This document shows positions 591-61,560 of a stretch of DNA of 61,616 nucleotides, in pieces. The notes below the pieces were generated by a model. The model saw only the letters and a program-made list of their open reading frames with translations, was not told the origin of the DNA and searched no databases. A program made the translations under genes and the position numbers. Source of the DNA: Stramenopiles sp. TOSAG23-2 (lineage: Eukaryota); the NCBI GenBank assembly GCA_900128395.1, contig LT649248.1:1-61616 (forward strand). Reading direction: 5' to 3'. The stretch's first letter is position 1, and each line of letters starts with the position of its first letter.

Positions 591-880
591 GGCCAGTATG
601 ATATAATACTTTCGCCACAACAACAAAAAAATGAATGTATAATAATAATAATGTATAATATGTTAAAAAAAGAGAAGCAAAGTTTTATTAATAAAGATAC
701 ACATACTAGAGCCTATATATGCATTAATATAATATAAGTACTTCAGATCTTTAGATTATTTTATTATATATTTCGTTATAAAAGGTAAATTATATCGTTT
801 AGAAACATTTGGCATCTGTTCTTTCAACTTGTATCCCCCAAAACATCACAAACAGCTTGATTTAATACCCAGGTTACACA

Positions 881-17540: not shown

Positions 17541-18314
17541 TATATAAATTAAAATAAGCAAGGTTATACTAATACTACCAGGTAAATACCAGGTGCAAAG
17601 TTGAAAGTTGAAGAACCTTCTCTTTACGACATTTAGTACGATAGAATATGTACTTAAAGGTATGAACCTATACCTAGCAAAAAAGAGAAGACAAAATGAC
17701 AAAATGACAATGTACTATCCCCCTTAACTACAAGGTTCACTCCCTTTAAAATTGAACGTTTAATATATGGAGTAAAATTAAAATCACGTTTATTTGTAAT
17801 GTACAAATATAATATTAGATACAACAACCTTTTGTGTTTTATACGGTATAATTTTGTTTTATTCTCTTTTTTTCTTGTAATCGCACATATACGAGGCGTA
17901 TACATATACACACATCTCTCTACTTTTACGTTTTATTTTGGTTATGATGTAACGCGACTCTGACTTTTAAAATTGAATCAAGGATCGAAACAACATTAAG
18001 GATTTTTTATATTATCTCCTGGTACTAATGCTGTAATGCTATACACATCATGTCATATTTTTTTTTGTCTCTATCAAAACATCTTAGACTTTTTACCCTA
18101 CTCTACCTCCAAAAACAACCAAGCAAAAAGTGCCCAACGTTATTATTTATTATTATTATAAATACATATATAGATTTTTAATATACTAATACTGTCCGGA
18201 GGATTATTTTAACAGAGATAGTAGTAGTAATATCAGAAGAGATTATATAGAAAAAAACAAGAGACGATATAGATTTATATATAGACATATATACAAAACA
18301 ATCTAGAGACAACC

Positions 18315-18836
18315 ATGTCGTTACCATCAAGACGTTCAAGACGATTGCCTGGCAATGGCAGTAGCAGTAGTAATAGAACACCAATATTAACGGAAAGGGA
18401 ACAATTAGTAAAAGTGAAAAATATGTCTATAACATTATCCACACGTCGTAGTAGTAATAATAATAATAATAATAATAACCCCTTATCTTCTCGGAGATCA
18501 GCAATGGCAGTATCAAAATTTTCATCTAGAGCATTAAAAAAGAAAAATATACCATCCGCAAGAAGTAAAAATGGATCAACATCACGTAGCCGTCGTCGTC
18601 GTCGTCCACAAAGTGCACCTCGATTACGTACTACTAATAGCAATCCAAATAATAATAATAACAATAATAGAATATATATAGATGATAATTTATCATCATC
18701 AACCAAAGATAAATATAAAGTATCCAGTAGCAGAAGAAATGTAAAACAATCATCAAGATTAACAACATCAAGAATCCAAGAGATGAATAAACAAAATAAC
18801 AGTAATAATACACCTCTTGTTGAATGGAGTATAAAA

Positions 18837-18867
<31 letters not shown>

Positions 18868-21077
18868 GTAATAGAAAAAGTAATAGATCCAATAATACGA
18901 ATAAAATTTCATCAAATAATACTACTGAAATTGAACGTCGAATTATGGAAAAAATACATAATCAAAGAATTGAGGAAAAAGCAAGTGAAATGTATAGACG
19001 TTTAAGTGAACGTGCAACACAAAAATTTGGACGTATTGATGAGAGTTTTTTACATGATTATCACGTAGATGATGATGGCTTAATACCATTTGATGCGTTT
19101 TGGGAAACCGTAAATGGCATGTATGGAAAACAAATATCTAAAACAACAGCTAGAAAAATATTTGATTTAACAGATGATGATGGCGATGGTAAAATTTCTA
19201 TTAATGAATTAAGAGAATCATACGATAAAGCAAATATGAAATTACATAGTGCACGTGTTATTGATGTAAATAATATTAATAAACGGGATAGAACACCTAT
19301 AGTCGATAAAATTATAAAACAAATTCGTCAAGTATATAAAGATAAAAGTTCATTATTAAATGTTTTTCGTGCTGCGGATGAAGATCATAATGGGTATGTC
19401 AATGAAATAGAAATGCAACATGTTTTAAGCGGTTTAGGATTAAGTACATCGTTAAAGGAATGTGGTGAATTATGCGATTATTTCGATGCGGATGGTGATG
19501 GCAAAATTGAATACGATGAATTTATTGCATTCATTTCAACCCAAGGTGGTGAACACCATGAACAACATCATAAAGAGGAAAAAAACAAAGGAATACCAGA
19601 AGGGTTAAAGGAATTACATGCAATGCAAGAGCGCTTGTTGCAACGAAATCAAAGTATAGAAGGACCAAAGGAAAAAACAGTTGGAATTGATACGGTAGCA
19701 AAAATTATACGTGATAAATACGGTCGTAGAAATTCACTTAGAAAAGTATTTAGGGATTGGGATATAGATAAAAATGGCAAAGTTTCCAAGGAAGAAATGT
19801 TAGATATATTGCATCATATGGATGTAAAAATGAAAGATGATGATTTTGAATCATTATATGAAAAATTTGATGAAGATCATGAAGAAGGTGTGTCTTATAA
19901 CGAATTTATTGACTTTATTTTCCCTGCAAATCCCGATCAAGATGCACATATAAAATTAAAATTAGAGCAAGAAAAAATGCGTTTAGAAGCGGAAAAAATT
20001 AAAAACGTTACTCCAGGAACATTGGAGGAAGCAATGTTAATTGAAAAAATAAAAAAAAGTGTATTTGAACGATTGTCACGGAAAGGCAATAAAGGTACAT
20101 TAAAGGAGGCATTCCGAAAATTTGATTTAGATCATGATGGACAAGTTACCTATGATGAATTTCGCACTGGGATGAAAAATTTAGATAGCAGATTAACTGA
20201 TGGTCATATTGATATTTTATTATCCCAATTTGATAAAGATAATAGTGGTTCCATTGATTACCTTGAATTCGTTGCAAATGCATCGGAGCAAAATAATGAA
20301 AATGTTATGATGCAATATCACAGTCGATTAAAACGAAGTAATACGGAACGGGGGCATTTATTGCGAAAATCAGGCCAAACACGTGCACGTCGTAGACCGG
20401 CAACTGCAATCGCTGGGTTAACATTACACAAAAGTGCAAGTGCAAGCTTAGCAAAAGCTGCATCTGCATCAAATTTAGGCGCATTAAATTCAAAACGAAA
20501 TTTCATGCCATATACAGAACGTATGCGAAGGAAACGATTAAAATATATTATCCCACCAAGTGGTTCCAGCCGGGAAAGACATTTTCATTTTAAAGCATTG
20601 TATAATAGAAAACATGTACCACGTAAAGATAGTAATACGCCATATTATGATACTAGAAATTTAATCAATTTACCTGATGAAGGCAATAATTTCCAGACAC
20701 GTAGATTTAACATAGATCATGATCATGGATATTATACGACAAATATATCTGCATTACACAGCCGTCCATTATCACAACATGCAGGGCATCGTGCAGAAAA
20801 TATAGAACAAGCAAGAAGCGATTTAAAAGAATCAAGAAGATGGGGTAGAATAAAACGCAAACAAGAAAATTTTGCACGAATTTATAAAAATGAAATTGAA
20901 CCAAATAGATACAGAGAGGAAGATAAACGTGAAGCAAAAGTTACTAGTTTATTACGTCAACGTATGAATTATTTTAAATCATTAGAAAATAGATTTGAAC
21001 AAGATGCAGCATTACAAAAAGTATGTGGATTTGTAAAAGCAAATGATAAAAATAAGAGTGAAAATAAGATATATTAG
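18315..21077 (+). CDS. Multi-EF-hand calcium-binding protein (920 aa)
   Basis: About 8 EF loops: DDDGDGKISINE, DEDHNGYVNEIE, DADGDGKIEYDE, DIDKNGKVSKEE, DLDHDGQVTYDE, DKDNSGSIDYLE and others; basic low-complexity termini. Confidence 0.9.
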
Positions 21078-21195: not shown

Positions 21196-22758
21196 TTATA
21201 ATCGACTCCGATCTACCCCTATTCCGATGACTCCGCCAAAACCACCACCATCTTTCTTCTTACGAATATTATCATTCTTGACTTCTACGAATAAATTTTT
21301 ATCAGTATACCTATGAGGTAGAACTTTTTTCATATGTGCAACTAATTGATCAAATTTTGGAGGTAAAAAAGATGCCCTTGTTAATGTTCCCCATCCTGAT
21401 GCATCGACGACTTCTTTTGGTAAATGTTGGCCAGCAATTCGAATTGAAACAAAATCTTGGAAGAAACATTGTAATCCCCATTTTTCTTTACGATCATGTT
21501 CTAATATAACACGTGGCAATTCTCTCCAAAATTGATCCAACGTTCCTAAATACCATGCATGCGTTAAAAACTCACATGATGGTCCTCCACCATGTAAACA
21601 CGTTTGTGGACTCAACACTAAATTATCTTCACTGACAATAGGTTCATGTTTACTAACATGCTCTGCATATTGATCTGTACAATTTATAATAAATGAACCT
21701 ATTGGTATTTCATGTTTCATAATAGTACCAACACGATTCTTTCTTAAATCTTTTAAGATTAACTCTAATGTTTGTGGGTTGCTATTGTTATAATTAATAT
21801 CAATTAAATGAGCTTTAAATATCTTTTCATTTGCTGGTGATAATACTTGTTTTATTTGTTCAACTTCTGCTTTTGAGCAAATTGCATTCATATGACTCTC
21901 TGGATCAGGGAATGGACTATGAAAAAATCCTTCTTTATTCCAAAAATTAAATACATCTTTTTCATTACTACCATTATACATTAACATACCTTTTATATTT
22001 GCATTTGCCGCTCTTCCACGTCGTACCATAAAATAGGTTCCATGTCCTGAAATACAATACATACGGTTCGTTACCCTTGATCCAAGTTCCGTTGACATTG
22101 CGTTCATTGCATCTACAGCTGTTTTACCACTACCAATAATATAAATTGGCTTGTCTTTATCTTTTGAAAAAAGCATCAATGCATTTGTAGCTGGTAATAA
22201 TACATCATTTGCAGTTAATGAATGAAATTTATCATTAACATTTTTACTCTCGGCAAATACAAATGATGCTTTGACTTTAAGATCATATCCATTTCCTTTT
22301 ATTAGTCGATTAGCAACAACGTTGATTTTGTGGATTGTATTGTTGTTAAATAATGGATATGCCATTATATTGACCTTTTTTGATTTTACGTTATGACCGC
22401 GATATTCATATCCCCATAATTCAATTATTTCAATACCTTTTTTGACTTTAATTTCATTAATACAATGTTTAAAATAATTTAATATTTCACCACGAGTTGC
22501 TAAATGTGATCTTTGATCGTATGTTCTTGCCAACGGCCATTTATGATCACCAACTGCATATCCTTCAAATGGTTGATGCAATGTGCAATATTTATATTGC
22601 GTTGGCCAGTGGCCGCCCCAATCTTCATTTCTTGCGATACAAACTATTGTCGACCCTTTGGGTAAATAATGCGACGCTGCATTTACTGCATTAATCCCTG
22701 CATATCCATTTCCAATCACACATAAATCACAATGAAGAGTGGTTGTATTGTGTTCCAT
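21196..22758 (-). CDS. FAD/NAD(P)-dependent oxidoreductase (flavin monooxygenase-like), PTS1 -SRL
   Basis: DLCVIGNGYAG FAD-binding motif, WGGHW, second Rossmann motif IIGSGKTAVD, C-terminal SRL. Confidence 0.8.
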   Translation of the reverse strand: MEHNTTTLHCDLCVIGNGYAGINAVNAASHYLPKGSTIVCIARNEDWGGHWPTQYKYCTLHQPFEGYAVGDHKWPLARTYDQRSHLATRGEILNYFKHCINEIKVKKGIEIIELWGYEYRGHNVKSKKVNIMAYPLFNNNTIHKINVVANRLIKGNGYDLKVKASFVFAESKNVNDKFHSLTANDVLLPATNALMLFSKDKDKPIYIIGSGKTAVDAMNAMSTELGSRVTNRMYCISGHGTYFMVRRGRAANANIKGMLMYNGSNEKDVFNFWNKEGFFHSPFPDPESHMNAICSKAEVEQIKQVLSPANEKIFKAHLIDINYNNSNPQTLELILKDLRKNRVGTIMKHEIPIGSFIINCTDQYAEHVSKHEPIVSEDNLVLSPQTCLHGGGPSCEFLTHAWYLGTLDQFWRELPRVILEHDRKEKWGLQCFFQDFVSIRIAGQHLPKEVVDASGWGTLTRASFLPPKFDQLVAHMKKVLPHRYTDKNLFVEVKNDNIRKKKDGGGFGGVIGIGVDRSRL

Positions 22759-23401
22759 GTTTTCTTCTTGCCGTTGATCAATATTATTACTTCCACATAC
22801 AAAGACGCATGATATCCTATATTATTATACCACCTGTTGGTTTAGGGCGTAAAAGATATTTATATATATTTTAAATTTTATAATCTATTTAGTATATGAT
22901 TTACTTTTACTCTCTCCACTAAATTTTATATCTATTTTATATTTAATTTTTTTTGTTTTGTTTTTTTCCAGGTTCGTTAGAAGACACACACTCTCAATAC
23001 CTTAAAGTTTGTATTAGTATAGGAATAGCATTAACATAGAGTTGTAAAATAGGGTTATGAATATAGCTTCTTATATTTTTGGTTATCCGTTTCTTGCACA
23101 CTTTTCTTCCCATCTCATTTTTATTATAATTTGCATCATATATATATATTATTTGCATATACATTGTATTAAATAGAGACAGGACGCAGGTAATAGAGAA
23201 CAGTAGAAACAACAAAGAAACATATAATATATATAATATATTGTATATAATATATATATTAAGATACATAGATACATATACCGTCTTGATAAATATAATT
23301 AGCTGTGGTAATTGGAGTAATATAATATTATATATATATATATATACTATATACATTTATATATATATATATAACTAAGAAAAGTATAAAATTTGTAAAA
23401 C

Positions 23402-28123: not shown

Positions 28124-29774
28124 CATAGTAGCCTTTTCTTCTTCGTTGTTTGATTGGTGTACCTGCTATAGCATGCTATTCGCTTCCATGGTTTTATGCA
28201 GGACGATCCCGACATCTGAAGTCTTGAACCGTAATAAAAACTACTCTCTCAACTATCCATCACTCTTGTGTTTCATTCCATTTCCCTTCTCCCGGCATCC
28301 ATAAGGAAAATAGAAATCACCACTTACACTTTTACTCTATCTTCATGTTCATCATCTAAGATTATTATATTTTCAGGTTTCCCTCTACGCTTCTATTTAA
28401 TTCATATTTGATACAAACTAAATTTGGTGCCTTACCATGCACTAAGCCAGATATAATTAGCTCCTGTTGTAAAACAGGGGGAGCGAGAACTCTGAGTCTC
28501 ACGGTAACTTTTTTTGGTTTTACAATAAATCCAAAGAAAATCACCAAAAAAAAGAAAAAAAAACTGCTATTATACGTGCAATAACCATAGTCAAAGATTC
28601 CTCCATCGATGACTTTAAATCTGGCACTTTCTGTGCCACGCCCTTTAACTGCTTATCACGTCTTTATTTATTACTTGACCTAATATATGCCTGATTTTCA
28701 GATCTAAAAACATTCTAAGCATTCAACGGAATGAATAAAAAAAATTTTCAAATCATCAAATACTGCATATTTCTAAAGTTTAGTCCTCAATCCCAACTGG
28801 ATCATTTCATTACTACCTTTATCAACCATTATATCCCCGTTAAAACCACACTGCCGCAGAAACAATATGGAAAGGGTGATATTTGTACACCGGGTGTTTC
28901 CAACGTCTACCTGTTGTATATATTGTTCATAATTATATATCACAACTTATACAATTAAATGAAATATATTACCATTTGTACATATATATATATCTAATCT
29001 TAGGGTATACAAGTCCCAAAGACGAATCTGCCTCCCGAAGGTGCAATCGCTATACTTTCCATCAATACATAAACAATCTTATAGACATGATGCTCTATCT
29101 GAAAGAGCTGTAGATGTATCAGTTTATTTCTATCCGTTTATCTAATTGTGATCAATAAACAGTCAAAAAAAAACTTAAAAATTAGCTAAACTCATTTTTT
29201 GATTAAAAAAAGTTCTATCCGCCAAACAACTCCATAATTTTTACCAGAGGCAAATAAAATAAAGAAGATGCGATTCGGTGATTTGTTTTTACCGACCAAA
29301 TCACCACACCGGGATCTATCATATCTTTTCTTTTCTTTCTTAAATAAAAAATAAAAAAACGCGCGTGGAAAAGGTGCAAAAACGACGCGTGTGGCGTGTG
29401 ATGAATTTAGCTATTATACTAATACATGTTAATGTATAAAACGCCCCACACACACATCATATATATATATATAATCACTTTATATTAACACTATAACACT
29501 ATAACACTATTACATGCTAATGCATATTTCATTGAAGGTATACTAATTACTACAAATTATCTATATCATACTATAGCTAATGCTGTGTCATGCTATTCGA
29601 TCTTGGGTCTTACCTTAACCCTTAACCTGTGGTATAGAATATATATATATATAGAATAGATGGTACACTGGACGCTCGTATACTGGTGTATATATATATA
29701 TATACAGATATAACATAAACAACATTAATGCTACACAAAAATACAATTAAAGATTACAGAAATAATCGAACAAT

Positions 29775-31013
29775 ATGCCGAACAAGAATGCACCGTTACA
29801 AGGTATTAATGTTTTAGACTTTACAGTATATCAAAATGGCCCGTCTGCAACGCAAATACTATCTGATTATGGAGCGAATGTAATCAAAATTGAACCATTG
29901 CGAGGGGAACCATTAAGATATTTATCACCAAAAGGTCGTCCAAATGTTGGTTTCCAAATATTCAATCGTGGAAAAAAATCTATAGCAATTGATCTTAAAA
30001 ATCCTGATGGTTTGGGTATAATCAAAAAATTACTTTTACATACAGATATCTTATGTGAAAATTTTCGTAGTGGTGTTATGAACCGTCTTGGGTTGGGTTA
30101 TGAGGAAGTTTCACGTATCAATCCAAAAATTTTATATTGTGCCAACCGAGGTTTAGGTTCAAAAGGTGATTGGAGTACACGTCCATCATTTGATTATGTT
30201 GCCCAAGGTTACACCGGTGTTATGCATGGTGCTGGTGGTGGTCCATCTCATCCACCAATACCGATTGAATGGGCATTTAGTGATGAAGTTGGTGCGATGA
30301 ATTTTTATAATGCAATTCTTACTGCACTTTTCAATCGTACAAGAACGGGTAAAGGTGAACATATAATAACATCACAAGCAGCTGCTACGTTACAATTTCA
30401 AAGAGGTGCAATTACATCTGCTGCATTAAATGGTGGAAAGCAAAGAGATGATGGTATGCGTCCTGGATGGGGTATGGCACAAGCAAATCAAATTTTAAAA
30501 GCATCTGATGGTAAATATTTAGTTGTTGCATTAGGTAGTAGTGATCAATGGAGACGATATGCCAAGTTAGTTTTATTACGGGATGATTTATTAACAGATG
30601 ATAGGACAAAAACAGGGATGGCACGATTGAGAAACAAAGAATTTGTATTAGATACAATAGGTAAAGTTATAATTGAAAAGCCAAGAGATTATTGGATTAA
30701 TAAATGTATTGAACATAATGTGCCATGTGCGCCTGTACAAAATTATGAAGAAGTTAGCAATGACAAATTTTTAAGAGAAAATAATTATATTGTTGATGTT
30801 ATCCATCGTGATCATGGTAAAATGACTGTAGTAGGCCCAACAACTACGTTTAGTAATTCAAAATTAGGTGAAGTTGCGGCTCAAGCACCATATATTGGTG
30901 AGCACACAAGGGATATTTTAAAAGAATATATTGGCATGAACGATACAGAAATTACACGTTTAAAAAACAAGGGTGTTATTGGTACTGGTGAGGATAAACG
31001 TAGTCGTATGTAA
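29775..31013 (+). CDS. CoA-transferase family III (CaiB/BaiF), PTS1 -SRM
   Basis: PLQGINVLDFT..GP, GANVIKIEP, NRGKKSIAIDLK, ENFRSG, AQAPYIGEHT; C-terminal SRM. Confidence 0.92.
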   Translation: MPNKNAPLQGINVLDFTVYQNGPSATQILSDYGANVIKIEPLRGEPLRYLSPKGRPNVGFQIFNRGKKSIAIDLKNPDGLGIIKKLLLHTDILCENFRSGVMNRLGLGYEEVSRINPKILYCANRGLGSKGDWSTRPSFDYVAQGYTGVMHGAGGGPSHPPIPIEWAFSDEVGAMNFYNAILTALFNRTRTGKGEHIITSQAAATLQFQRGAITSAALNGGKQRDDGMRPGWGMAQANQILKASDGKYLVVALGSSDQWRRYAKLVLLRDDLLTDDRTKTGMARLRNKEFVLDTIGKVIIEKPRDYWINKCIEHNVPCAPVQNYEEVSNDKFLRENNYIVDVIHRDHGKMTVVGPTTTFSNSKLGEVAAQAPYIGEHTRDILKEYIGMNDTEITRLKNKGVIGTGEDKRSRM

Positions 31014-31306
31014 AACTTTATTTCAAAAAAAATATATATATCATACAAATTTTTTTAATTATACCATACTTGTGCACTTCATTTAATTTTTTAAATTCTA
31101 TTTTTTTCTTCTTTTCCATCACATCTCATCATCATCGAACATTCGTTTATACTACATATACATATTAATATACATACATCTATAAAATATTATACCTATA
31201 TATATATATATATATTACAAGAGAAAATGACCAATATAAATAATATTATATAACAAGAACATTATAGCAACAACAACAGTATAATAACAATAATAATAAC
31301 AACAAC

Positions 31307-32893
31307 ATGCCACATGTAACAATACTTGGTGGTGGAATTTCTGGATTGTCACTCGCATGGTTTTTAAGACAAGCACATAAATTGAAAATTAGTAGTAAGA
31401 AAATTATACAAAATGAACAACAAATTGTAAATAATAATAAATCAACATCATTAAAAATTTCAATAATAGAATCGACGAATCGGACCGGTGGATGGGTACG
31501 TACGGAACGTATTGGTGGACATATATTGGAACGAGGGCCTCGTGGATTTCGGCCAAAAGGAAATGGGATCGAAACGTTGAAATTAATTGAAAGTTTAGGA
31601 TTACAAGGTGCAACCATAGCACCATCAACTACTTCTAACAATCGTTTTGTATATCATGAAAACCAATTACAACCTTTACCATCTTCTTTGAAAGATATAT
31701 TTTTGAATCCACCACCTGTCATGGAAGGTGTTGTTGCAACAGTTATAAAAGAACCATTTAAACCAAAAAATATCGAATTGAAGGATGAAAGTATTTACGA
31801 TTTCATTTCTCGGAGATTTTCAAAAAAAATGGCAACGACGTTAATTGATGCAATGATATCAGGTATTTATTCAGGTGATATTAAGAAATTATCCGTACGT
31901 TCATGTTCACCATTGAATAAATTATGGGAATATGAACAATCACATGGTTCAATTGTGAAAGGAATGTTTATGCCATCATCATCATCTGCAACAACAACAA
32001 CAAACAATTCGAATAATGATGATGGACCATTGTCTACGTTTGTTCAAAAAATGCAAAAAGCACCACAAGTATCTTTTATAAAAGGTATGGAACATTTGAC
32101 AGAAACATTGACAAAGAAATTAGCATCAAATGCAGATACAATAATATATACAGATTATGAATGTGTTCAAATAATAAATGAATCTAATGATGAAGGAATA
32201 GAAATACATTTACAAGATGCAAATGATGAAAAAGAAATGAAAATTATAAATAATGTGGATCATATATTTTCAACAATACCAGCAAATAAATTATCCAACA
32301 TCTTGCCATCTTCATCATTATTTGATTACGCAAAAGAATTATTATTAAATAAAATGAAATATAATGTAAATGTCGCAGTTGTCAATTTAGTCTATAATAA
32401 ATCCAATTTGGTTGGTAAAGATGGATTTGGTTATCTTGTACCTAGCATGGATAAAGAAGGTATATTAGGTGTAGCATGGGATTCATCGATATTTCCAGCA
32501 CAAATTGATGCAAAAACAATGAAAGACCATGATTTACATCGTTTTAACAATACATCTCGTGTAACTGTTATGATTGGTGGAGCAAAAAATCCGGATGTTG
32601 TTACTAAAAGTAATGAGGAACTGATTCAAATTGCAATTGAAAAAGTGACAAAACATTTAAATTTAGATAAAAATGTTACACCTGATCCAGAATTAAAAGT
32701 TGCTGGTATTATGTATGATTGTATACCGCAATATTATGTTGGACATTATGATCATGTGGAAAAATTAAAAGCAAATTTACAAGAACATTTACCAGAATTA
32801 ACATTTATTGGAACAAGTTTTTATGGTGTTGGTATAGCTGATTGCATAGCAAATGCAAAGATGACCGCGGAAGAATATGTCAATAAGATGTAA
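31307..32893 (+). CDS. PPOX: Protoporphyrinogen IX oxidase (HemY type)
   Basis: ILGGGISGLS, ERGPRGFR, DESIYDFISRRF, GFGYLVP, IPQYYVGH, GVGIADCI motifs. Confidence 0.93.
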   Translation: MPHVTILGGGISGLSLAWFLRQAHKLKISSKKIIQNEQQIVNNNKSTSLKISIIESTNRTGGWVRTERIGGHILERGPRGFRPKGNGIETLKLIESLGLQGATIAPSTTSNNRFVYHENQLQPLPSSLKDIFLNPPPVMEGVVATVIKEPFKPKNIELKDESIYDFISRRFSKKMATTLIDAMISGIYSGDIKKLSVRSCSPLNKLWEYEQSHGSIVKGMFMPSSSSATTTTNNSNNDDGPLSTFVQKMQKAPQVSFIKGMEHLTETLTKKLASNADTIIYTDYECVQIINESNDEGIEIHLQDANDEKEMKIINNVDHIFSTIPANKLSNILPSSSLFDYAKELLLNKMKYNVNVAVVNLVYNKSNLVGKDGFGYLVPSMDKEGILGVAWDSSIFPAQIDAKTMKDHDLHRFNNTSRVTVMIGGAKNPDVVTKSNEELIQIAIEKVTKHLNLDKNVTPDPELKVAGIMYDCIPQYYVGHYDHVEKLKANLQEHLPELTFIGTSFYGVGIADCIANAKMTAEEYVNKM

Positions 32894-34642: not shown

Positions 34643-35136
34643 CAGTTTCAATTAGGGGAATAATTTAGTATACTTAAAGTACAAATTGAACAAAAATTTG
34701 TTCCTTAATACCTAAAAATCCCATAATATATTCTGATATTTAATCGAAAACTCTAAAAATCCATCTCCCATCTTAATCTTATATTGCTACCACCTCGTAT
34801 TCTAATTCGCTATAAATCATAGAAATCTAAATCCATATATTATAGAAACCATGCTCTCAACTTTTAAGGTGGAAACCCAACACATCAAACTGGAAAGAAG
34901 CAGAAGAAGACAGAAATCCGTTTAGCAACTTTATTTTAATTTGCAAAAGTAAAAATATAAACAAGTTGGAGGCGGCAAAAGAAAGAAACAAATAGAAAAT
35001 TTCCAAGAGCAACGGAGAATATATATACATTTATATTTCCACCACGCTATTTGTTAAAAGTGAAAGAAACAATAATATACAAATATACCAGCATATTATA
35101 TATATATATTATATTATATTTAAAAAAAGATTAACC

Positions 35137-38115
35137 ATGGAAGAAAAAGAAGCAACACTTCAAATACCAATACAACCTAATAATAATAATAATAATAATC
35201 AAGACGAGGAAGATAATAATAATAATATTAACAACAATGTAGGCGAAACTACAAATGGACATCAAGAGCCAATATTCAAAACGATCACACCGAGTAAACA
35301 TGGATTTATATCTGCAAGGAAAGAACAAACACCTCTTAACTCGGCAAGGTCCAATACATCACAAAAATCTGCTCCTGGAATGTTTAGTCCAGATAAAGTA
35401 CCAAGAACATCTGGAAAACCAATACTTACACCATTACCACCAAGTGTTTTATCGTCATCACTACTTGGAGGCTTACTATCTGGTAGAAGTAGTAGCAGTA
35501 GTAGAAGAAACCAAGTTATCACACGAAATTCACCTTTAAAACAAGGAACGAAAAATTATTTAGCAGAAAGTATTGTACCATTATTAATTGAAGGTTTAAC
35601 TCAATTATCTATTTCAAGACCAGAAAAATCAGACAATAGCCCCGGACCAGCTGTCTGGTTGGCAAAATATTTATTACGACGTTCTGATCAAAGTAAAGAT
35701 TATATATTGAAACGTAGACGTGGTGGTATTGAAGTAGAAGTACAAACAGAAGATACAGAACAATATTCCAGGAAAAAAGAAGTGGTGCATATGGAAACAC
35801 AAACAGATAAAGCAAGTGGATCAAGTTTGAGTGCAATACGAGAACTGAATGGTAGTAGTAATAATAATAATAATAATAATAATACTACTAATGTGAATCA
35901 AAATCGTGACATTAATATTAATATACGTTTAGATGGTGCATTATTACCATCACGAATGATGACGATGAACAATAATAATATGAATAATAATAATGCGATG
36001 CCATCATCAGAATCATATGATGTTTTCCTTGGAAATAGTAATAATAATAATAATAATAATAATACTTTACAACAACCATTATTACAACCTGCTGTACAGC
36101 CAAATATATTGGCAGCTCCACCATCACCAACCGTGAATAATAATAATAACTATAATAATAATGAAATTAGTAGAAAACCATTATTACTAGTTGATGATGC
36201 TGAGGATGAAGTTAAAAGTGCAGATATACCAGATATTAATAATGAAAATATAATTGAAAATAAAGATATTGTAGTAAAGAAAGTTGTACAAACAGAAGAA
36301 CAAGAGAATAATGATGATCGAATACGGAATCAAAATATTGAAAAATTAAAAAGTTTCTTTGAAGAAATTTGTGCCCAAGGACATGTCCCAAAAAATTCAT
36401 TGATTGTTTCTCGTAGACAATTTCAACGTGCTATATTATCACTTGGATTACAATCGATGTTAGCTTCTTCGATTGCTACTGTTAATAATAATGACGATAA
36501 TAAAAATATAGATAAAGACAAATCAAAATTACCAGGATTATCAATGTTAATGAAACCTCGTCAATATAAACAAGCATTAGATAAAATGACAAATTCAACA
36601 AACGATAATACAATAACTTATTCACAATTTGAAGAATTTTGTTTTAAAGGTATTGCAAGAAGCGCAGATGAGGAGGAAAAAACTGAACAAGTAGATAATG
36701 TTGAAACGAAAGAAGAAATTGTACAAAAACAGTCTAAATCTAATAATGCAATTTTCACCAACACTATAACATATGAAGAACTTCAATCATTGGAAAACGA
36801 TTTACAAAAAACAATTGATAGTAAGCGTCCTAAAACACTAAGTGAAGTTGATACAGTAATTGATAATGTGTTTACTTCAATTTTTGATGATCCACAAATT
36901 AATAGCAATAGTATCGATGGTAGTGAGAATGATAGAAACGATGATCAAGTAAGGAAAGAGGATGTAATATTTTTACTCGGTATGTCACCACCAAATTCTA
37001 TACTTGATTATGCAGAAATAATGCCAAGCTTTCAATTTTTAATGAATCCACAAATATATGAAAATGAATTAGTAAACTATAATGAAATGGAAACAATCAA
37101 ACGTGTTGAATTTATGAACTTTATAAAGCAACAAATAGCAATATTAAATAAAAAAGAAACGATTGATAGTTTAGTATTAGATGACTATATGAATAATGCT
37201 ATATTAATAACTACAGATGACAAAACATTAGATGATAATAATACAATAGAAACACCATCATCATCACCAACAAGAAGAAGAAATCTTGGTACACCATATG
37301 ATGAGTTTTCATCTGCACGTATAGAGACAAGCACGACTAGTAAATTACGTTTGGATAAATCATTGAAAAAAATATTCAATACATTAGATTCAAAGAAAGA
37401 TGGATTTTTAGATAAACGCGAAGTTTTACTATCATTATCTGGACGTGGAAATGCCAAAGTTGCAAATTTATTATCATATTTCCAACCATTGGAAGCGTTA
37501 TTAAAACCAAAAACATTCCAAGAGGCGTTTAACATAATGGATACAGAATCCTCTGGTAAAGTTAATTTCGATGAATTTAGAGCATTTTGCAATGCAGTTG
37601 TAATCGAAGCGGAAGAAATTGCATTGAGTGGTCGTCCATCTGTCGATGAAAATGGCGAAGACATTATTATGGATTCTGCAAGATTATCAGCACGCGTTGT
37701 AAAAGAATTAGAAAGAGACATAGCATTGCGAACTTTATTTAATAAAGTAGGAGCATCGTTATCAAATATTAACAATAATGGTAATAATAATAATAACAAG
37801 GCAATAGAAGAAGAGGAGGAGGAGAAGGAAAGACAGACTAATAAGAAAAGTAAAGGACCATATTTAAGCAAACGTTATATTTTACGTGCATTGCATTCAA
37901 ATCCATCGATTGTTGCACTTTTAGACAATGAGCCTATATTATTTGCATTATGCAAACCACAATCGTTTGGCGCAACTTTTGATACAATGAATGTAGAGAA
38001 AGATGGAAAAGTTTCCTGGTTAGAGTTTCGAGCATTTTGTACAGCTGTAAGTGATGATAATATGGAAGAAAATAATATGAATATTAATAGTAACTTGGAA
38101 AGTGCAATGGTGTAA
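35137..38115 (+). CDS. Dpy-30-motif and EF-hand protein (992 aa), possibly flagellar
   Basis: TKNYLAESIVPLLIEGLTQLSISRP..PAVWLAKYLL Dpy-30 motif; EF-like DSKKDGFLDKRE, DTESSGKVNFDE, NVEKDGKVSWLE; VQT/TQT motifs. Confidence 0.8.
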   Translation: MEEKEATLQIPIQPNNNNNNNQDEEDNNNNINNNVGETTNGHQEPIFKTITPSKHGFISARKEQTPLNSARSNTSQKSAPGMFSPDKVPRTSGKPILTPLPPSVLSSSLLGGLLSGRSSSSSRRNQVITRNSPLKQGTKNYLAESIVPLLIEGLTQLSISRPEKSDNSPGPAVWLAKYLLRRSDQSKDYILKRRRGGIEVEVQTEDTEQYSRKKEVVHMETQTDKASGSSLSAIRELNGSSNNNNNNNNTTNVNQNRDININIRLDGALLPSRMMTMNNNNMNNNNAMPSSESYDVFLGNSNNNNNNNNTLQQPLLQPAVQPNILAAPPSPTVNNNNNYNNNEISRKPLLLVDDAEDEVKSADIPDINNENIIENKDIVVKKVVQTEEQENNDDRIRNQNIEKLKSFFEEICAQGHVPKNSLIVSRRQFQRAILSLGLQSMLASSIATVNNNDDNKNIDKDKSKLPGLSMLMKPRQYKQALDKMTNSTNDNTITYSQFEEFCFKGIARSADEEEKTEQVDNVETKEEIVQKQSKSNNAIFTNTITYEELQSLENDLQKTIDSKRPKTLSEVDTVIDNVFTSIFDDPQINSNSIDGSENDRNDDQVRKEDVIFLLGMSPPNSILDYAEIMPSFQFLMNPQIYENELVNYNEMETIKRVEFMNFIKQQIAILNKKETIDSLVLDDYMNNAILITTDDKTLDDNNTIETPSSSPTRRRNLGTPYDEFSSARIETSTTSKLRLDKSLKKIFNTLDSKKDGFLDKREVLLSLSGRGNAKVANLLSYFQPLEALLKPKTFQEAFNIMDTESSGKVNFDEFRAFCNAVVIEAEEIALSGRPSVDENGEDIIMDSARLSARVVKELERDIALRTLFNKVGASLSNINNNGNNNNNKAIEEEEEEKERQTNKKSKGPYLSKRYILRALHSNPSIVALLDNEPILFALCKPQSFGATFDTMNVEKDGKVSWLEFRAFCTAVSDDNMEENNMNINSNLESAMV

Positions 38116-40775: not shown

Positions 40776-41411
40776 GTGAATCAAGTCTCAATGGATGGAT
40801 CTGATGAGGATCCACCTGAAATAACCCTACAGGAGGGCGAGGTAGCAGAGGCATGGAGAACGGATTTAGGACGGAGTCCGGGGAACGATCCAAACTTCAA
40901 AGTAGTAACGGAGGAGGAATTCCAAGAGGTATGGAAAGAGTTAGAAATGGACACTAATCCAATCTTCTTAAACTTGGGAAAAGAGAAAAAAATAAAATTT
41001 AAAGAAATAATACGGAAATATAGCCATGTATTTCGGAAAACAGTGACTACACTCAAGAAGTTGCGGCGGGTGTCGTTTAAACCCAAGGACAATGGTATAT
41101 ATTTAAAGGAGAGGTATAAAATGCAAGCAACCGTATGGGGTTCAACAGTTGAGATGGATGTGCAAGTATCCATTGTGGACCTGCCAATGGACGAAATCCC
41201 TGTTATACAGCGAAGACTGTACGACAAAAATGAAATACCGCACCCTGTATTTTTAAACCAGTGCAGGTCTGCACATTGCGCTGCACATCTTTTTGAAGCG
41301 TTTAAAACGTTCTTAAATGAGGTACACCATTACCTAGGTCAGTGCAGAGTTGTATACTACCAAATACATGTTTTAATTAGGGTTGGCGAGTACGTGCGTC
41401 ATACGATATAG
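40776..41411 (+). mobile_element. Possible degenerate retroelement relic
   Basis: Higher-GC patch without an ATG start; KIKFKEIIRKYSHVF resembles the Ty3/gypsy pre-RT linker; the minus strand carries LQKDVQRNVQTC, like an integrase Zn-binding segment; no intact RT motifs. Confidence 0.3.
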
Positions 41412-41820
41412 CATGGGGATAGCAGGTAAAATTTTTGATAGGAATACATTATCATATACTAATGTATATTCATATAAAATGAATCAAGTATCACCAATAT
41501 ATATGATTTAAATTATACAATAATCTAATTACTCGATTCACTTAATAATAAATAATAAATATATTTTATACTTAAATAATCAATGTGCAGCCAAAAATCG
41601 ACCAAGTTTATTCACGTCACATCCACACCACACACTGTGTGCCACTCAAAAAATGATATGAATTAATGGAGAAAACATATATACATATATCATGCATCAT
41701 CACCATATGTAATAAAGTGAATATATTATTGAAAATATATATACATTGTGAAAATAATAATATATACCAGTAATAATAATAATATATATATATATATAAG
41801 ACTTTAAAAATAACATCACC

Positions 41821-43651
41821 ATGGCACATTTATTAAAACAAATCATAACAAAAAATAAAATAATTGGTGCAGCAGCTATCATTGCAACATCAACATATTT
41901 ATACGATGAAATAAATCAATACAATAACGACAACAACAATAACAATCATATTCGACCTGCATATTGCAGTGGTGAAACAAAAGGTAATGCAATGACTAAA
42001 CAAACAAAGCCAATATTATCTATCCCATCGATACAAAGTTTATATTTTGAATTTCATACACCAACTGAACTATTAGAAAATTTAGCAACAGAAATGACGA
42101 GTGAAATGCAAAAAGGTTTACAAAAAGATAATTGTGATATTAAAATGCTTCCATCGTTTGTTTGTGATTTACCAACTGGTAATGAAAATGGAAAATTCTT
42201 AGCACTTGATTTAGGAGGTAGTAATTTTCGTGTATTGCGTTTCAAGGTAGAAAATGGCGATGTTACATTGGAAGCAAGTAAAAAAGCAAAAATACCAAAA
42301 CAATTAATGTCAAAATCAAGTACTGGTGTTGATATGTTTCAATTTATTGCTGATACAATTGCACAATTACCATCCGATGGAGAGGATCATAGTCAAAAAT
42401 TACCACTTGGGTTTACGTTTTCATTTCCATGTCAACAATATAAATTAAATGCTGGTACATTATTACATTGGACAAAAGGTTTTGAAACAAGTGGTGTTGT
42501 TGGTGCAAATGTCGTAACATTATTACAAAATGCATTTGTTGCAAATAATATCAATGTAGAAGTTGCTGCATTAGTAAATGATACGGTTGGTACATTAGTT
42601 GCACATGTTATTGAAGCACCAGATACAGTATTAGGTATGTAAATATTTACCTCTAATACAACAAATCTATGAAACATGGTTATACTAACATAAATTAATA
42701 TATTTTTATTATCTACATATATATATTGCAACAACAATTCTTATTATATATACATATATAGGTGTCATCCTTGGTACTGGATGCAATGCATGTTATGTGG
42801 AAGATATTGAAAATGTATCAAAATGGACGGTTGATCGTCCAACAAATAAATCAAAAGTAATTATAAATATGGAATGGGGTGGTTTCAATTCAAAAAATGT
42901 TCCTGGTTTGTATAATAAATTTGATGAAATTATTGATACAAATGAAGATTATGGCGCACAAAGATTTGAGAAACAAATTAGTGGAAGGTATTTAGGTGAA
43001 TTAGCACGTTTAGCTTGTTTCCATTTATTTCAAAATGAAGAAATTTTATTTCAAAATAGTTTAATCAATAGTAATAATAATAATAATAATGATGTGGAGG
43101 AACAAAGAAAATTGATTCTTTCTGTTTTTGGTAAATCTCATCATTTTTTAACACCAATGATGTCAAAGATACAAAGTGGTGAAGCAAATGATGTAACTAA
43201 AAATCCATGGTTACGCGCTGCTGCGAAAGCAGGTGTCGACTTGAATGGTGAATACACCGAAGCTTTGTGTGAAGGATATTTAAAGCAAGAAGGTGTACAA
43301 ATGGAAGATATGAGATATCATTTAAATTTTTGGAAGTTATGGTCAACATTGGATATATACGATCGTCAAATAATTCATGAAGTATGTGATATGGTTTCAA
43401 CACGTGCTGCACGTTTATCTGCTGCTGCTATTGGTGCAGTTGTTCGTAAAATTCATAAAGAAGATAGTTGCACGGTAGCAATTGATGGTAGTGTATTTGA
43501 ACATTATCCATATTTTAAACAAAATATGCAAATTGCATTATTAGAAATGTTAGGTGATAAAAAACAAGTTAAATTAGAATTGAGTCCAGATGGTAGTGGA
43601 AAAGGTGCTGCATTAATTGCAGCTATTGCAAATGTTGATAGTAAATTATAA
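41821..43651 (+). CDS. HXK: Hexokinase, two exons (41821-42634, 42762-43651), N-terminal hydrophobic leader and C-terminal SKL
   Basis: KMLPSFV, LALDLGGSNFRV, LPLGFTFSFP, WTKGF, VNDTVGTL, spliced LG-VILGTGCNACY, INMEWG, FEKQISGRYLGE, DGSVFE, DGSGKGAAL. Confidence 0.95.
42635..42761 (+). other. Spliceosomal intron (127 nt)
   Basis: GTATGT donor, TACTAAC at 42683-42689, TAG acceptor; removal restores the conserved GVILGTG motif. Confidence 0.9.
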
Positions 43652-56957: not shown

Positions 56958-57497
56958 ACAAACCTATTTTTAAATATATTATAATTAAAATATTAATAAT
57001 AAAATATCAAATATCATAACCTTTTTTCTTTTTATAAAAAATAAAAAAATAACTTTTTACATGTGTGTGTGATGAATAATATTTTAATGATATGAATAAC
57101 ACTACACAGCATTGAAAAAAGTTCAAACAACATCTCTCCAATATACCTTAATAAATCCACCGACAACTCTTCATCCACTCGTCATCCCCAATAGGGATGT
57201 TTCTACTCAGGAAACCCCGCTATGCTATTCGCATATACAGTATGGCAGCGAGGATGTTTCATACAGTATGTTGTTGTTGTTGGTTGTTGTTGGCGTAATC
57301 ATTTTTTTTTATTTTATTGATGGACAGTCCAACGAGAACTGGAGAACATATATCCTTTTTTTTAGCATTTTTTTTATTTAGAATCAATATATATATATAT
57401 ACGAATATATATAAAACTACGCAATATATTGGTCTATACATATAAATTAAAAGCGATACTACAAAATAATAATAATAAATACACACAGACAACAGCA

Positions 57498-59237
57498 ATG
57501 GCAGCAATACCAGCAAACTTAAAAGAATTAACTGGTCCAGGGGGTCCATTTGAAATGGGAGAAGATACATGGACATGTGGACATAAAAAAGTTACCTCTA
57601 CCTGTTTTTTAAGGACACCAAGAACAATGCGTGATTTATATGATTTATCATTCTCAAAATATTCCAACTTGGAATGTTTTGTTTATGAAAACGAACGTTA
57701 TACATTTGGTAAAGTACAACAAATTTGTAGTGCTCTTGCGACATATTTAGTGCAAGATGTAGGTGTAAAACATGGCGATCGTGTAGCAGTTGCAATGAGA
57801 AACTTTGTGGAATGGCCAATGACCTACATAGCTAGTACCGGTATTGGTGCCGTTTGCGTGCCATTAAATTCTTTATGGAAAGAAAAAGAATTAGATTATG
57901 GCCTCAGGGATTCAGGCACTACGGTATTAATTTGCGATGAAGACAGATATGAATATAGTAAATCAACTATTAAAGATTTAGGTATACATACAATTGTCGT
58001 ACGTTGTGACAAAGATTTGCCTGGTACAATATCATTTGAACAAGTTATTGCTAAAAGAGCTGGAAGTAATATGCCTTTAAATACTGCAACACATGATGAT
58101 ATTGCAGCAATTATGTATACTAGTGGTACAACAGGTTTCCCAAAAGGAGTTGTTCATACACATAGGAATATTACAAATCAAATGTCAAGACTGTTATTAG
58201 GAGCAGCTGCGACACCACGTCCTGATAATGCACCGCAAGATTGCCGAATATGCCCTGTACCGTTATTCCACGTAACTGCATCACATCATATCTTTCTTGA
58301 TTCCATCGTACGTGGTGCACGTTTAGTTTTAATGTTTAAATGGGATGCTGGGAAAGCATTAAAATTAATTCACGAGGAAAGGCCAGGTGCATGGACAGGA
58401 GTACCGACGATGGTACAAGATTTGATGGAACATCCAGATTTTGATAAGTATGATTTATCAAGTTTAAAAAGTATTGGTGGTGGTGGTGGTCCAACTCCAA
58501 CATCACAAGTTTCGAAAACAGCGAAGAAATTCAAAGGTGGTGTTCCATCACAAGGATACGGGTTAACGGAAACAAATGGTGGTATTACTGGTATTGGTGG
58601 AAAAGAATATTTGGAACATCCAACAAGTTGTGGTAAACCTGCACCAGGTTTAGTACAAGCATGTATTATTGATCAAGATGCCGGTGCCAGTCCAACTGGT
58701 GAACTGCCAAAAAATACTCCAGGGGAATTATTAATCAAAGGTCCATTAGTAATGTCACATTATTGGAATAAAAGAGAGAAAACGGATGATTCCATTATTA
58801 CCGTACCTGGAAAAGGACATGGTTGGTTTCGTACTGGTGATATTGCACGTATTGATGATGAAGGTTATATTTACATTATGGATCGAGCAAAAGATTTAAT
58901 TATCCGTGGTGGGGAAAATATTTCATGTGCGGAAGTGGAAGCAGCATTCTTTAGTTATGATAAAGTAATGGAATTAGCAGCATTTGCTATTAAAGATGAT
59001 AGATTAGGTGAAAGAGTTGGTGTCATGTTTGTACCTAAAAAAGGCCAAACATTATCGCAACCAGAATTATTACAACATGTTCAAGGTAAAATAGCTGGAT
59101 TTAAAATTCCAAAACCAGAAGATATGTTTTTTCAAAATGAAATTTTACCACGTGGTGCAACTGGTAAAATTTTGAAACGTGAAGTTCGAAATCAAATTAA
59201 CGATATGCTCGAAAAAGCAAAGCAAGGTAGAATGTAA
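57498..59237 (+). CDS. AMP-binding acyl-CoA ligase (long-chain fatty acid-CoA ligase-like), possible PTS1 variant -GRM
   Basis: YTSGTTGFPKG, PLFHV, QGYGLTET, WFRTGDI, DRAKDLIIRGGENIS, LPRGATGKILK; first ATG at 57498. Confidence 0.92.
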   Translation: MAAIPANLKELTGPGGPFEMGEDTWTCGHKKVTSTCFLRTPRTMRDLYDLSFSKYSNLECFVYENERYTFGKVQQICSALATYLVQDVGVKHGDRVAVAMRNFVEWPMTYIASTGIGAVCVPLNSLWKEKELDYGLRDSGTTVLICDEDRYEYSKSTIKDLGIHTIVVRCDKDLPGTISFEQVIAKRAGSNMPLNTATHDDIAAIMYTSGTTGFPKGVVHTHRNITNQMSRLLLGAAATPRPDNAPQDCRICPVPLFHVTASHHIFLDSIVRGARLVLMFKWDAGKALKLIHEERPGAWTGVPTMVQDLMEHPDFDKYDLSSLKSIGGGGGPTPTSQVSKTAKKFKGGVPSQGYGLTETNGGITGIGGKEYLEHPTSCGKPAPGLVQACIIDQDAGASPTGELPKNTPGELLIKGPLVMSHYWNKREKTDDSIITVPGKGHGWFRTGDIARIDDEGYIYIMDRAKDLIIRGGENISCAEVEAAFFSYDKVMELAAFAIKDDRLGERVGVMFVPKKGQTLSQPELLQHVQGKIAGFKIPKPEDMFFQNEILPRGATGKILKREVRNQINDMLEKAKQGRM

Positions 59238-59717: not shown

Positions 59718-60582
59718 GATGTAAATTTTAAATATTCTACCGTTCGATTTATTCTAAAAATAGAAAAATGTTTTTAAAAAAAAAAATGGATCTATAAATA
59801 TTCCAGGTGTATTATTATTATATCTCACAAATAAACAATAAATATATACTGTATAATTTTTTTATTACTACTAATCTTTTATATATATATATTTCTTTTC
59901 TATAAATGTGTTGATTCAATATGTATATCATGCATGTGATAATCATGTCCTACACTTTAAACGTTCCTATACATGTATATTCGTTTTATATATATATATT
60001 TGTTATGTCTTACCATCATGGCATCATTCGTTATATTGTCATACCTGGTACAGTCGATCCAGATCTTAATCTGGAATCACCCCCCCCTCCGATTAAACGC
60101 CTCCTTACCCCAAAATTTTTACATTTAAGTACAATGTTAGTATACTATAATTCAACTAATTGATAGGACATCGACGAAAAGTCATTTTTAAGGAATTTGT
60201 TTGATCTAAAATTGATTCCCCCTGGTTTGAGCTTCCTGTCTTCCTCCTGTATTAGACCTATTCCTTCTTACTTTTTTTTTCTTTTGGTTTTGCTTGGTAT
60301 TTTATTACTGCAACCTAAAAAAATGCACTTCTTTATTAGCACTTTATTATTATTAAGCAGCTTTAACTTTATTATAATATTTATCGCAATCCTAATCCAG
60401 AGAGGCAATCATCTGTCGCAATCAATCGCACTTTATTAGGAGAGTATATATAGCTTAACATTTTTTGGTCATTCTATATTTCATTCAATTTATAATAATT
60501 TAATATAATATATTCATCGCATCATTTTATTGTTATTATTTTTATATATCACACCTTCGTAAAACAGAATCATTCATCGTTC

Positions 60583-61560
60583 ATGAGTTTTCAAGAAATT
60601 ATTTATTATACCCATCAAAATGGACGTAAATTAAAACTACGTTTATTTGATACAAATAATAAATTGCAGCAACAACCATCCCCTTGCGTTATGTTTGTAC
60701 AAGGTTCTGGATTTTTTGGTGGACCACATTTATTAAATATATCACCTCCATACCTTGATGCTTTATTAAACAATGGTTACTCGGTAGCACAGATTGAACA
60801 TCGTGGCTCCATTGAAAATGGCATTTTTCCAAATCCATTAAATGATATTACATGTGCTATCCGATATTTAATGGGAAATGCAAAAGATTTGAATTTAGAT
60901 ATTAATAAATTTGCCATGTTTGGTAGATCTTCTGGTGGATATTTCACATCAATGATTGGTGTATTAAGTACTAATGATAACGTTGGAGCAATGAGCCAAG
61001 AAATTGTGAAAAAATTACATGGTACAACAATGGGTCCATATGTTAATATATTTCCAAAAATTAAATGTGCAGTATGTTTTTTTCCACCAACAGATTTATT
61101 ATTAATGGATTTTCATACACCAGAACATTTAAGAAAGGAGACATGGGGAGTGCGAAGAAAATTACCAAATGGTGCTAAAATTCATTTACCGCATGATCAT
61201 CCATCATCACCAGAAGCATATTATATGGGATTTCCAATACAGACAAAACCATTGGAAGTACAACTAGCAAATCCATTAACATATGTTAATAAAAAGACAA
61301 TCCCATTTTTATTAGTTCATGGAGATGCTGATGGTACAGTCCCGTGTGGGCAAAGTCAAGTTTTGTATAAAAAATTAACAAGTGATGATGTTGATGGAAT
61401 CAATGTTCGGAAACATAAATATATTGAAGTAAAAGGTGGAGGGCATGGAACACCACATTTTTTAGAAAAAAATATTGAAAATGAATTTTTAGATTTTTTA
61501 GAAAAACATTTAATGATGAAGGAAGAAGATGGTAGTAAGCAACAAGAGAGTCGGTTGTGA
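60583..61560 (+). CDS. Alpha/beta hydrolase (BD-FAE/HSL-like esterase), PTS1 -SRL
   Basis: VQGSGF oxyanion region, GRSSGG nucleophile elbow, PFLLVHGDADGTVP, GGGHG; C-terminal SRL. Confidence 0.88.
   Translation: MSFQEIIYYTHQNGRKLKLRLFDTNNKLQQQPSPCVMFVQGSGFFGGPHLLNISPPYLDALLNNGYSVAQIEHRGSIENGIFPNPLNDITCAIRYLMGNAKDLNLDINKFAMFGRSSGGYFTSMIGVLSTNDNVGAMSQEIVKKLHGTTMGPYVNIFPKIKCAVCFFPPTDLLLMDFHTPEHLRKETWGVRRKLPNGAKIHLPHDHPSSPEAYYMGFPIQTKPLEVQLANPLTYVNKKTIPFLLVHGDADGTVPCGQSQVLYKKLTSDDVDGINVRKHKYIEVKGGGHGTPHFLEKNIENEFLDFLEKHLMMKEEDGSKQQESRL

Follow-up and report, generated by a model that had tools for sequence, protein, structure and literature searches.

Plant hexokinases of types B and D carry N-terminal anchors and are localized to mitochondrial membranes, and a moss type B hexokinase gene has a splice variant that lacks the anchor (sections of PMC3045890). 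The glycosomal hexokinases of kinetoplastids and diplonemids carry an N-terminal type 2 peroxisomal targeting signal (PTS2) of the form M..R[LV]x5H[IL] (PMC3195984, Table 1, and PMC9512073, Supplementary Table S1, each in excerpt). Yeast Ptc5 joins a presequence and a transmembrane segment to a type 1 peroxisomal targeting signal (PTS1) and transits mitochondria (parts of PMC7217942 and PMC10906886). In stramenopiles the C3 half of glycolysis is targeted to mitochondria, and the five upstream glycolytic enzymes, including hexokinase, were placed in the soluble fraction (PMC6198282, in part). Here we describe a hexokinase gene at positions 41821..43651 (+) of a 61,616-nucleotide stretch of DNA from Stramenopiles sp. 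TOSAG23-2 (GenBank assembly GCA_900128395.1, contig LT649248.1, positions 1 to 61,616; hereafter the window), the product of which has a membrane-type N-terminal extension and ends in Ser-Lys-Leu (SKL). Our preferred reading, to which we give about an even chance, is that the hexokinase is anchored by its N-terminus and probably associated with mitochondria, and that its PTS1-like tail was acquired recently and has an unproven, possibly minor function.

The window protein resembles the plant and moss type B and D enzymes in being a single-domain hexokinase behind an N-terminal hydrophobic segment. That N-anchored mitochondrial hexokinases occur in plants, as the original prediction had stated, agrees with the description of types B and D in the relevant sections of PMC3045890. 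However, the window protein has a weaker hydrophobic segment with acidic, not basic, residues after it, and its kinase groups with environmental sequences. We know of no plant hexokinase with a PTS1. Like the glycosomal hexokinases, the window protein is a hexokinase family enzyme carrying a peroxisome-type signal, but the signal is a C-terminal PTS1 and not a PTS2, the protein lies outside the euglenozoan clade, and the signal is not kept in its nearest relatives. The PTS2 pattern [RK][LVIQ]x5[HQ][LAF] was searched for in the first 100 residues of this hexokinase and of six relatives, and it matched none of them. The parallel with glycosomes that had been drawn earlier is therefore correct in that kinetoplastid and diplonemid hexokinases do carry a peroxisomal signal, and breaks down in the kind of signal. 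The closest mechanistic precedent for a leader and a PTS1 on one chain is Ptc5, which, like other proteins combining a mitochondrial targeting signal with a PTS1, shares with the window protein an N-terminal basic flank, a hydrophobic segment and a C-terminal PTS1; Ptc5 differs in being a phosphatase, and the PTS1 of the window hexokinase is lineage-specific. Freitag et al. reportedly described, in 2012, cryptic peroxisomal isoforms of fungal GAPDH and PGK that arise by alternative splicing or stop-codon read-through. These likewise place a PTS1 on a glycolytic enzyme outside Euglenozoa, whereas the SKL of the window protein is constitutive and stands at the normal stop. Beyond Euglenozoa, our literature search brought up no hexokinase reported to bear a PTS1 or to be peroxisomal. 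To the extent of that search, a hexokinase with both leader and PTS1 is undescribed, and the finding rests on the four-residue tail of one lineage.

Gene structure and catalytic core

All elements of the gene in the original prediction, namely a spliced protein, a basic-then-hydrophobic leader, a second in-frame ATG at 41992 and a ..NVDSKL end, were recovered where it had placed them. Read directly from the DNA, the gene encodes an intact hexokinase of 567 amino acids on the + strand. Exon 1 (41821..42634, +) encodes residues 1-271 and the first base of Gly272 and contains the Pfam domain Hexokinase_1 (PF00349) on residues 72-262 (E 7.9e-66, 222.1 bits, cut-off 24.3). Exon 2 (42762..43651, +, including the TAA stop) encodes residues 272-567 with Hexokinase_2 (PF03727; E 2e-63, 214.4 bits, cut-off 24), and the two domains stand in order. 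The 127-nt intron between them (42635..42761, +; GTATGT...ATAG) has an in-frame TAA at 42640-42642, and the genomic gene calls of relatives end at the same GM-stop or at GKLL-stop. The exon join reads ...VAHVIEAPDTVL-G-VILGTGCNACY and is gap-free against full-length homologues such as P0559. The first ATG (ATG1, 41821-41823; context atcaccATGgc) is preceded by an in-frame stop, and the protein begins MAHLLKQIITKNKIIGAAAIIATSTYLY..RPAYC, opening with MAHLLKQ. It ends ..AAIANVDSKL, with SKL at 43640-43648 (+) followed directly by TAA at 43649-43651. A non-standard code in which TAA is read past SKL was considered and rejected; the window, with a G+C content of ∼30%, holds stop-free open reading frames (ORFs) of 3443 and 1588 codons in the standard code, so ciliate-type read-through of this TAA is ruled out, and the hexokinase fold itself ends where its homologues end, which also counts against read-through beyond SKL.

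The 5′ end of the gene was likewise examined against public gene models. The complete MAHLLKQ leader is present in 12/15 listed sequences of the window's own cluster (11 start with MAHLLKQ and P0535 starts one residue earlier), and the homologous start MSAFIKQ is present in 8/9 listed sequences of the sister cluster. The public model P0536 from the window's own cluster (438 amino acids) fuses an unrelated ORF at 40776-41411 to 41860-42642, that is, from mid-leader to a stop inside the intron, and lacks both the leader and the SKL end. Inclusion of the upstream ORF in the gene was rejected, the leader being intact in the cluster and an in-frame stop standing before ATG1. The sister's public model P0498 (496 amino acids) starts at an internal Met, keeps part of the intron and lacks the leader. 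For the window hexokinase and its sister alike, the public gene models err both at the 5′ end and over the intron, and automated localization surveys would therefore miss both signals. A further gene call, P0534, starts at the second in-frame ATG (Met58) and was rejected as evidence for a short isoform; it derives from unspliced DNA, since it ends at the intron stop. The upstream 211-codon ORF (40776-41411, +) has no Pfam match and occurs in the metagenome gene call P0540 from the same cluster. A (TA)n run at 41783-41799 (+) stops ∼20 nt before ATG1; if this were a TATA element the 5′ untranslated region would be very short and, speculatively, some transcription might start past ATG1.

The catalytic core is well conserved. 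Residues that are near-invariant in the 74- and 75-sequence alignments are kept in exon 1 (D130, G132, G133, N135, R137, F198-T199-S201, W217, K219, G220, N253, D254 and T255) and in exon 2 (G4, T5, G6, N8, E37, W38, G39, E69, K70, D241, G242 and D276-G279, in exon-2 numbering). The family motifs L-A-L-D-L-G-G-S-N-F-R, F-T-F-S-F-P, W-T-K-G-F, N-D-T-V-G-T, G-T-G-x-N, E-W-G, F-E-K, D-G-S and D-G-S-G-x-G-A are likewise present. Going by known hexokinase structures, these near-invariant residues would include the sugar- and ATP-binding contacts. Since they are kept, the hexokinase is taken to be active, and the gene product is taken to be a catalytically intact, single-domain hexokinase with a core of about 50 kDa (EC 2.7.1.1 family). 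The top solved relative of exon 2 is human hexokinase-2 (E 1.2e-53). In the AF2 model of exon 1 the hexokinase fold begins at about residue 64, with pLDDT of at least 84 from the block 61-70 on, and the AF2 model of exon 2 alone has a mean pLDDT of 88.5. The large domain contains a region (43052..43348, +; exon-2 residues ∼97-195) with a clade-specific insertion of ∼55-60 extra residues; query residues 101-203 align to just residues 311-356 of human hexokinase-2. The same region is found in the sister and in the 577-residue P0559, and it is modelled as helical with 10-residue block mean pLDDT values of 78-96.

The sister cluster shares 78% identity with the window hexokinase over exon 2, and a wider clade (P0129, P0130, P0133/P0553 and P0559) shares 41-53%. 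In a FastTree analysis of an alignment of 239 columns and 75 rows, which contained no plant sequence, the window hexokinase and 11 environmental rows formed a 12-row set with SH-like support of 95. The kinetoplastids Leptomonas and Trypanosoma grayi and the euglenid Jenningsia were placed outside this set, as were animals and fungi, in agreement with the earlier assignment of the gene to a non-euglenozoan organism. The clade is known solely from environmental protist sequences, and the top named relatives are chytrid hexokinases at 38-39% identity. A representative search run without length or word filters gave no further close full-length orthologue (best match 185.5 bits). P0005, which is 97% identical over 47% of the query, was considered as a variant with an alternative C-terminus and rejected; it matches up to exon-2 residue 271 and then continues into unrelated sequence. 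It was read as a chimera or an otherwise unrelated continuation and left out of the counts.

The N-terminal extension

The extension begins with a basic flank, residues 1-13 (MAHLLKQIITKNK; 41821..41859, +), with a net charge of +3 and no acidic residue, for which the sister counterpart is MSAFIKQLIASRS. It is followed by a moderately hydrophobic segment on the Kyte-Doolittle scale, residues 14-28 (IIGAAAIIATSTYLY; 41860..41904, +), and then by acidic DE; residues 1-28 as a whole have a net charge of +3 and are free of acidic residues. The Kyte-Doolittle mean of the comparable segment is 1.61 in the sister and 1.75-1.91 in the 41-53% clade. Residues 29-63 (41905..42009, +) form a low-complexity, probably disordered linker that includes an Asn run, the motif R-x-A-[YL]-C-(H)-S and Met58, and that varies between relatives both in its length and in its sequence. 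AF2 models exon 1 with helices at residues 2-11 (low confidence) and 16-36 (pLDDT <50) and no secondary structure over residues 37-63.

The layout recurs throughout the clade. Among the listed sister leaders, 8/9 start MSAFIKQLIASRSSTVVATAAIATSASYLF..RTALCHSG (also written MSAFIKQLIASRSSTVVATAAIATSASYLFVGREDD...RTALCHSG). In P0129, P0130, P0553 and P0559 the flank is basic or rich in Ser; an Ala/Gly-rich hydrophobic segment comes next, then an acidic stretch and a Cys that has a small residue at -3. In P0553 this flank is a textbook-like Arg-rich presequence (MLRVILRRWPALAAS...). Hydrophobic N-termini are also found on unrelated named hexokinases of opisthokont type, namely those of chytrids, the EukProt entry Nk52 and the entry Sdes. 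The Cys stands at position 49 of the window protein in the motif RPAYCS (41953..41970, +), which aligns to RTALCHS in the sister. Ahead of the kinase fold, the sequences around it read RPAYC/SGE here, RTALC/HSG in the sister and ..TSC/S, ..SHC/S, ..SEC/T and ..AAC/S in the wider clade, and the spacing from the hydrophobic segment to the Cys ranges from about 5 to >20 residues among relatives. The small-x-Cys motif could be a processing or lipidation site. The mitochondrial-like leader that had been proposed is thus real and clade-conserved. The acidic residues after its hydrophobic segment and a hydrophobic moment not above that of shuffled sequences speak against a classical amphipathic presequence; it is better described as a clade-conserved basic flank with a moderately hydrophobic segment. 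From this conservation we conclude that the leader is probably an old, selected membrane-targeting or sorting element.

The C-terminal SKL

The C-terminus fits the PTS1 tripeptide pattern [SAC][KRH][LM], and by sequence SKL is, as had been noted, the canonical PTS1 tripeptide. Its conservation in close orthologues, which the original prediction had named first among its tests, was not found. Among the 15 listed sister sequences, 12 end NVSNDK, NVGSDK or NVGNDK ([SG][NS]DK) and the three others are truncated or differently ended, such that SKL is present in 0/12 intact sisters; the sister tail has the same length as that of the window protein and a different sequence. The 41-53% clade ends ..AAIASQ or similar. 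We fetched 374 hexokinase homologues and located their terminal helix by the pattern DGSGxGA, which left 219 with a native-looking C-terminus; the pattern had no match in 130, mostly fragments, and lay far from the end in 25. A [SAC][KRH][LM] end was found in 2/219, P0003 from the window's own lineage and P0447 from another clade. P0447 is the EukProt hexokinase of the phagotrophic euglenid Jenningsia fusiforme, which starts MADSWASLYSNLAHQF, ends ..PSRTSKL and is 42% identical to exon 2. It resembles the window protein as the sole other SKL end among the 219 readable C-termini, but it lacks an N-terminal extension and falls, with kinetoplastid sequences, in a different clade, and for these reasons the two SKL endings are regarded as independent. 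Jenningsia fusiforme is absent from the euglenid set of the review PMC9512073.

From the composition of the coding ORFs in the window, a C-terminal SKL is expected by chance in 0.056% of genes and a [SAC][KRH][LM] end in 0.23%; it is rare for any one gene, yet by extrapolation tens of cases would be expected genome-wide. The tail comprises six residues past ..AAIA and has Asp at -4. In the AF2 model of exon 2 alone the terminal helix (277-294 of 295) ends there, with pLDDT <50 at residues 293-295. Since the last helix of the model runs into the tail, a long flexible tail is not predicted. By these comparisons the SKL is evolutionarily young and confined to one lineage. Because of this confinement, conservation gives no support to a peroxisomal role of the hexokinase, which is possible.

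Localization of the hexokinase

We propose that the extension of ∼60 residues shared by the clade, with its basic flank, hydrophobic segment of ∼15 residues, acidic low-complexity linker and Cys before the kinase fold, holds the hexokinase on a membrane, which by analogy would most likely be mitochondrial. It might do so as an outer-membrane signal-anchor, as in the plant type B and D enzymes, or as a presequence with a stop-transfer segment, and it would be the ancestral and dominant localization signal. The SKL would have arisen within the last four residues, for which the sister lineage has [SG][NS]DK. Through it, some of the protein could be sent to peroxisomes or to contacts between mitochondria and peroxisomes, although the comparative data show no such rerouting, and we infer that its role is minor or absent. 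Several observations weigh against this proposal, some touching the anchor and some the tail. The Kyte-Doolittle mean of the hydrophobic segment is 1.59 over 15 residues and at best 1.16 over 19, as for a weak anchor, and the 10-residue block mean pLDDT is 42-58 over residues 1-60. The hydrophobic moment of the first 13 residues is 0.41, a value matched by 19% of shuffles, and is 0.13 in the sister. The flank C-terminal to the hydrophobic segment is acidic, in contrast to outer-membrane signal-anchors such as that of Tom20, in which a basic flank follows the segment. SKL is the strongest PTS1 tripeptide, and the DSKL end is invariant in 15/15 listed sequences of the window's own cluster (threshold at least 90%). 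Moreover, S[KR][LM] ends are found on 4 of the ∼23 gene-like ORFs counted in the window, against 0.025-0.05 expected from composition (binomial P ∼1e-7 to 1e-8), and by this measure the host organism appears to use PTS1. In an organism that relies on PTS1, a fortuitous and unused SKL might therefore be selected against.

Ranked behind the anchored hexokinase, and in our judgement unlikely, is dual targeting of a single polypeptide by both signals, with the protein passing through mitochondria to peroxisomes as Ptc5 does or acting as a tether at contacts in a tug-of-war. Proteins with dual signals can indeed tether organelles (PMC10906886, in part). The 41-53% clade includes the typical Arg-rich presequence flank of P0553, and the window's own SKL is fixed in all 15 listed variants in an organism that seemingly uses PTS1. 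The conserved Cys with a small residue at -3 also fits the small -3/-1 rule of type I signal peptidases, including the inner membrane peptidase, but its spacing from the hydrophobic segment (from ∼5 to >20 residues) is unlike that of a standard peptidase site. The basic flank comprises just 13 residues and is not significantly amphipathic, and since SKL is missing from 12/12 intact sisters and from the rest of the clade, such a mechanism would be new to the lineage. Rather improbable, in turn, is that the extension anchors the protein to some other membrane, such as the endoplasmic reticulum, the plasma membrane or that of another organelle, or that it is a matrix presequence and is cleaved off, with SKL irrelevant or masked. 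As a transmembrane helix the hydrophobic segment would be borderline, and the +3 charge and absence of acidic residues over residues 1-28 are compatible with a plain presequence. The mitochondrial location of the C3 half of stramenopile glycolysis (PMC6198282, in part) is also in its favour, and one neighbouring gene has as its nearest eukaryotic atlas cluster one that is mostly diatom. However, the same portion of PMC6198282 places stramenopile hexokinase in the soluble fraction, and hexokinase N-terminal hydrophobic anchors have so far been tied to mitochondrial membranes (sections of PMC3045890). The hydrophobic segment is moreover conserved across the clade, which suggests more than a spacer.

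Least probable of all, with only a slim chance, is the mechanism that the original prediction had put forward, dual targeting by alternative starts, in which the long form from ATG1 would be mitochondrial and a short form from the second in-frame ATG (Met58; 41992..41994, +; context aatgcaATGac) would be directed by SKL to peroxisomes and phosphorylate sugar there. In the AF2 model the kinase fold opens with a helix that begins ∼6-10 residues after Met58, which itself falls in the disordered linker; a start at Met58 would thus leave the kinase complete. At -3 this ATG has a purine, and the two out-of-frame ATGs between the starts (41906 and 41987) each open a two-codon ORF only (MK-stop and MQ-stop), which would permit re-initiation. 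The sister linker also contains a Met at another position, the moss type B hexokinase gene provides a precedent for an anchor-free variant (PMC3045890, in part), and, more speculatively, the (TA)n run leaves room for transcription starts near or past ATG1. The position of Met58 is, however, not conserved, being Ala in the sister, in which the Met lies seven residues downstream, and at 2.5% Met about one sequence in four would be expected to have a Met somewhere in a linker of 15 residues. The strongest context is that of ATG1 (ACCATGG, with A at -3 and G at +4), which argues against leaky scanning, as do the intervening ATGs against the scheme as a whole. The sister keeps the leader and an internal Met without a PTS1, and the internal Met is thus not kept for peroxisomal import. 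The window contains no other PTS-bearing sugar-metabolism gene and no other glycolytic or pentose-phosphate enzyme, and within it there is no sign of an established peroxisomal glucose-phosphorylation pathway. Alternative initiation is not demanded by the data, and alternative transcription starts are possible.

Implications

That the young SKL is functional together with a bipartite N-terminal signal, placing hexokinase in peroxisomes or at mitochondrion-peroxisome contacts of an uncultured, non-euglenozoan protist by Ptc5-like transit or tug-of-war, seems to us rather doubtful. Were it so, it would represent a recent and independent origin of peroxisome-associated glucose phosphorylation, seen as that origin takes its first step, and the unusually dense PTS1-ending enzyme genes of the window would be part of the same expanded peroxisomal metabolism. 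A working SKL would mean a PTS1-directed peroxisomal hexokinase outside Euglenozoa, combined with a membrane-type N-terminal signal. It would offer a snapshot of a cytosolic or mitochondrion-bound glycolytic step moving into peroxisomes, the unresolved first step of glycosome evolution, and the few proteins in which mitochondrial and peroxisomal signals compete would be joined by a metabolic enzyme. Should the SKL have no effect, the case becomes an ordinary one, a warning that a lone canonical tripeptide without conservation is weak evidence.

Neighbouring genes

The three other PTS1-ending genes, with canonical or near-canonical tripeptides, lie at 21196-22821 (-), 29766-31013 (+) and 60499-61560 (+). 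They encode, respectively, an FAD/NAD(P)-binding oxidoreductase ending ..DRSRL (no Pfam match at E 0.001), a CoA-transferase family III enzyme ending ..KRSRM and a BD-FAE/S9 alpha/beta-hydrolase ending ..QESRL, all of which are enzyme types plausible in peroxisomes. Weak ends are found on an amine oxidase (31268-32893, +; ..NKM) and an AMP-binding enzyme (57366-59237, +; ..GRM). The PTS1-ending genes may represent peroxisomal enzyme genes that are physically clustered. Among the genes of the window, none for PEX5 was noted. The window had no Rfam match and no tRNA gene. Its other genes are eukaryotic and include those for EF-hand and Dpy-30 proteins, TMEM18, DUF829, a protein kinase, an aldo-keto reductase and a purine-nucleoside phosphorylase, for which the top named relative is from Thecamonas (61%). 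A single stop-free ORF of 3443 codons (866-11197, +) has a fibronectin type II domain (residues 826-853) and C-terminal EF-hands, and large EF-hand ORFs are also present at 18285-21077 and at 34996-38115, the latter with a Dpy-30 motif.

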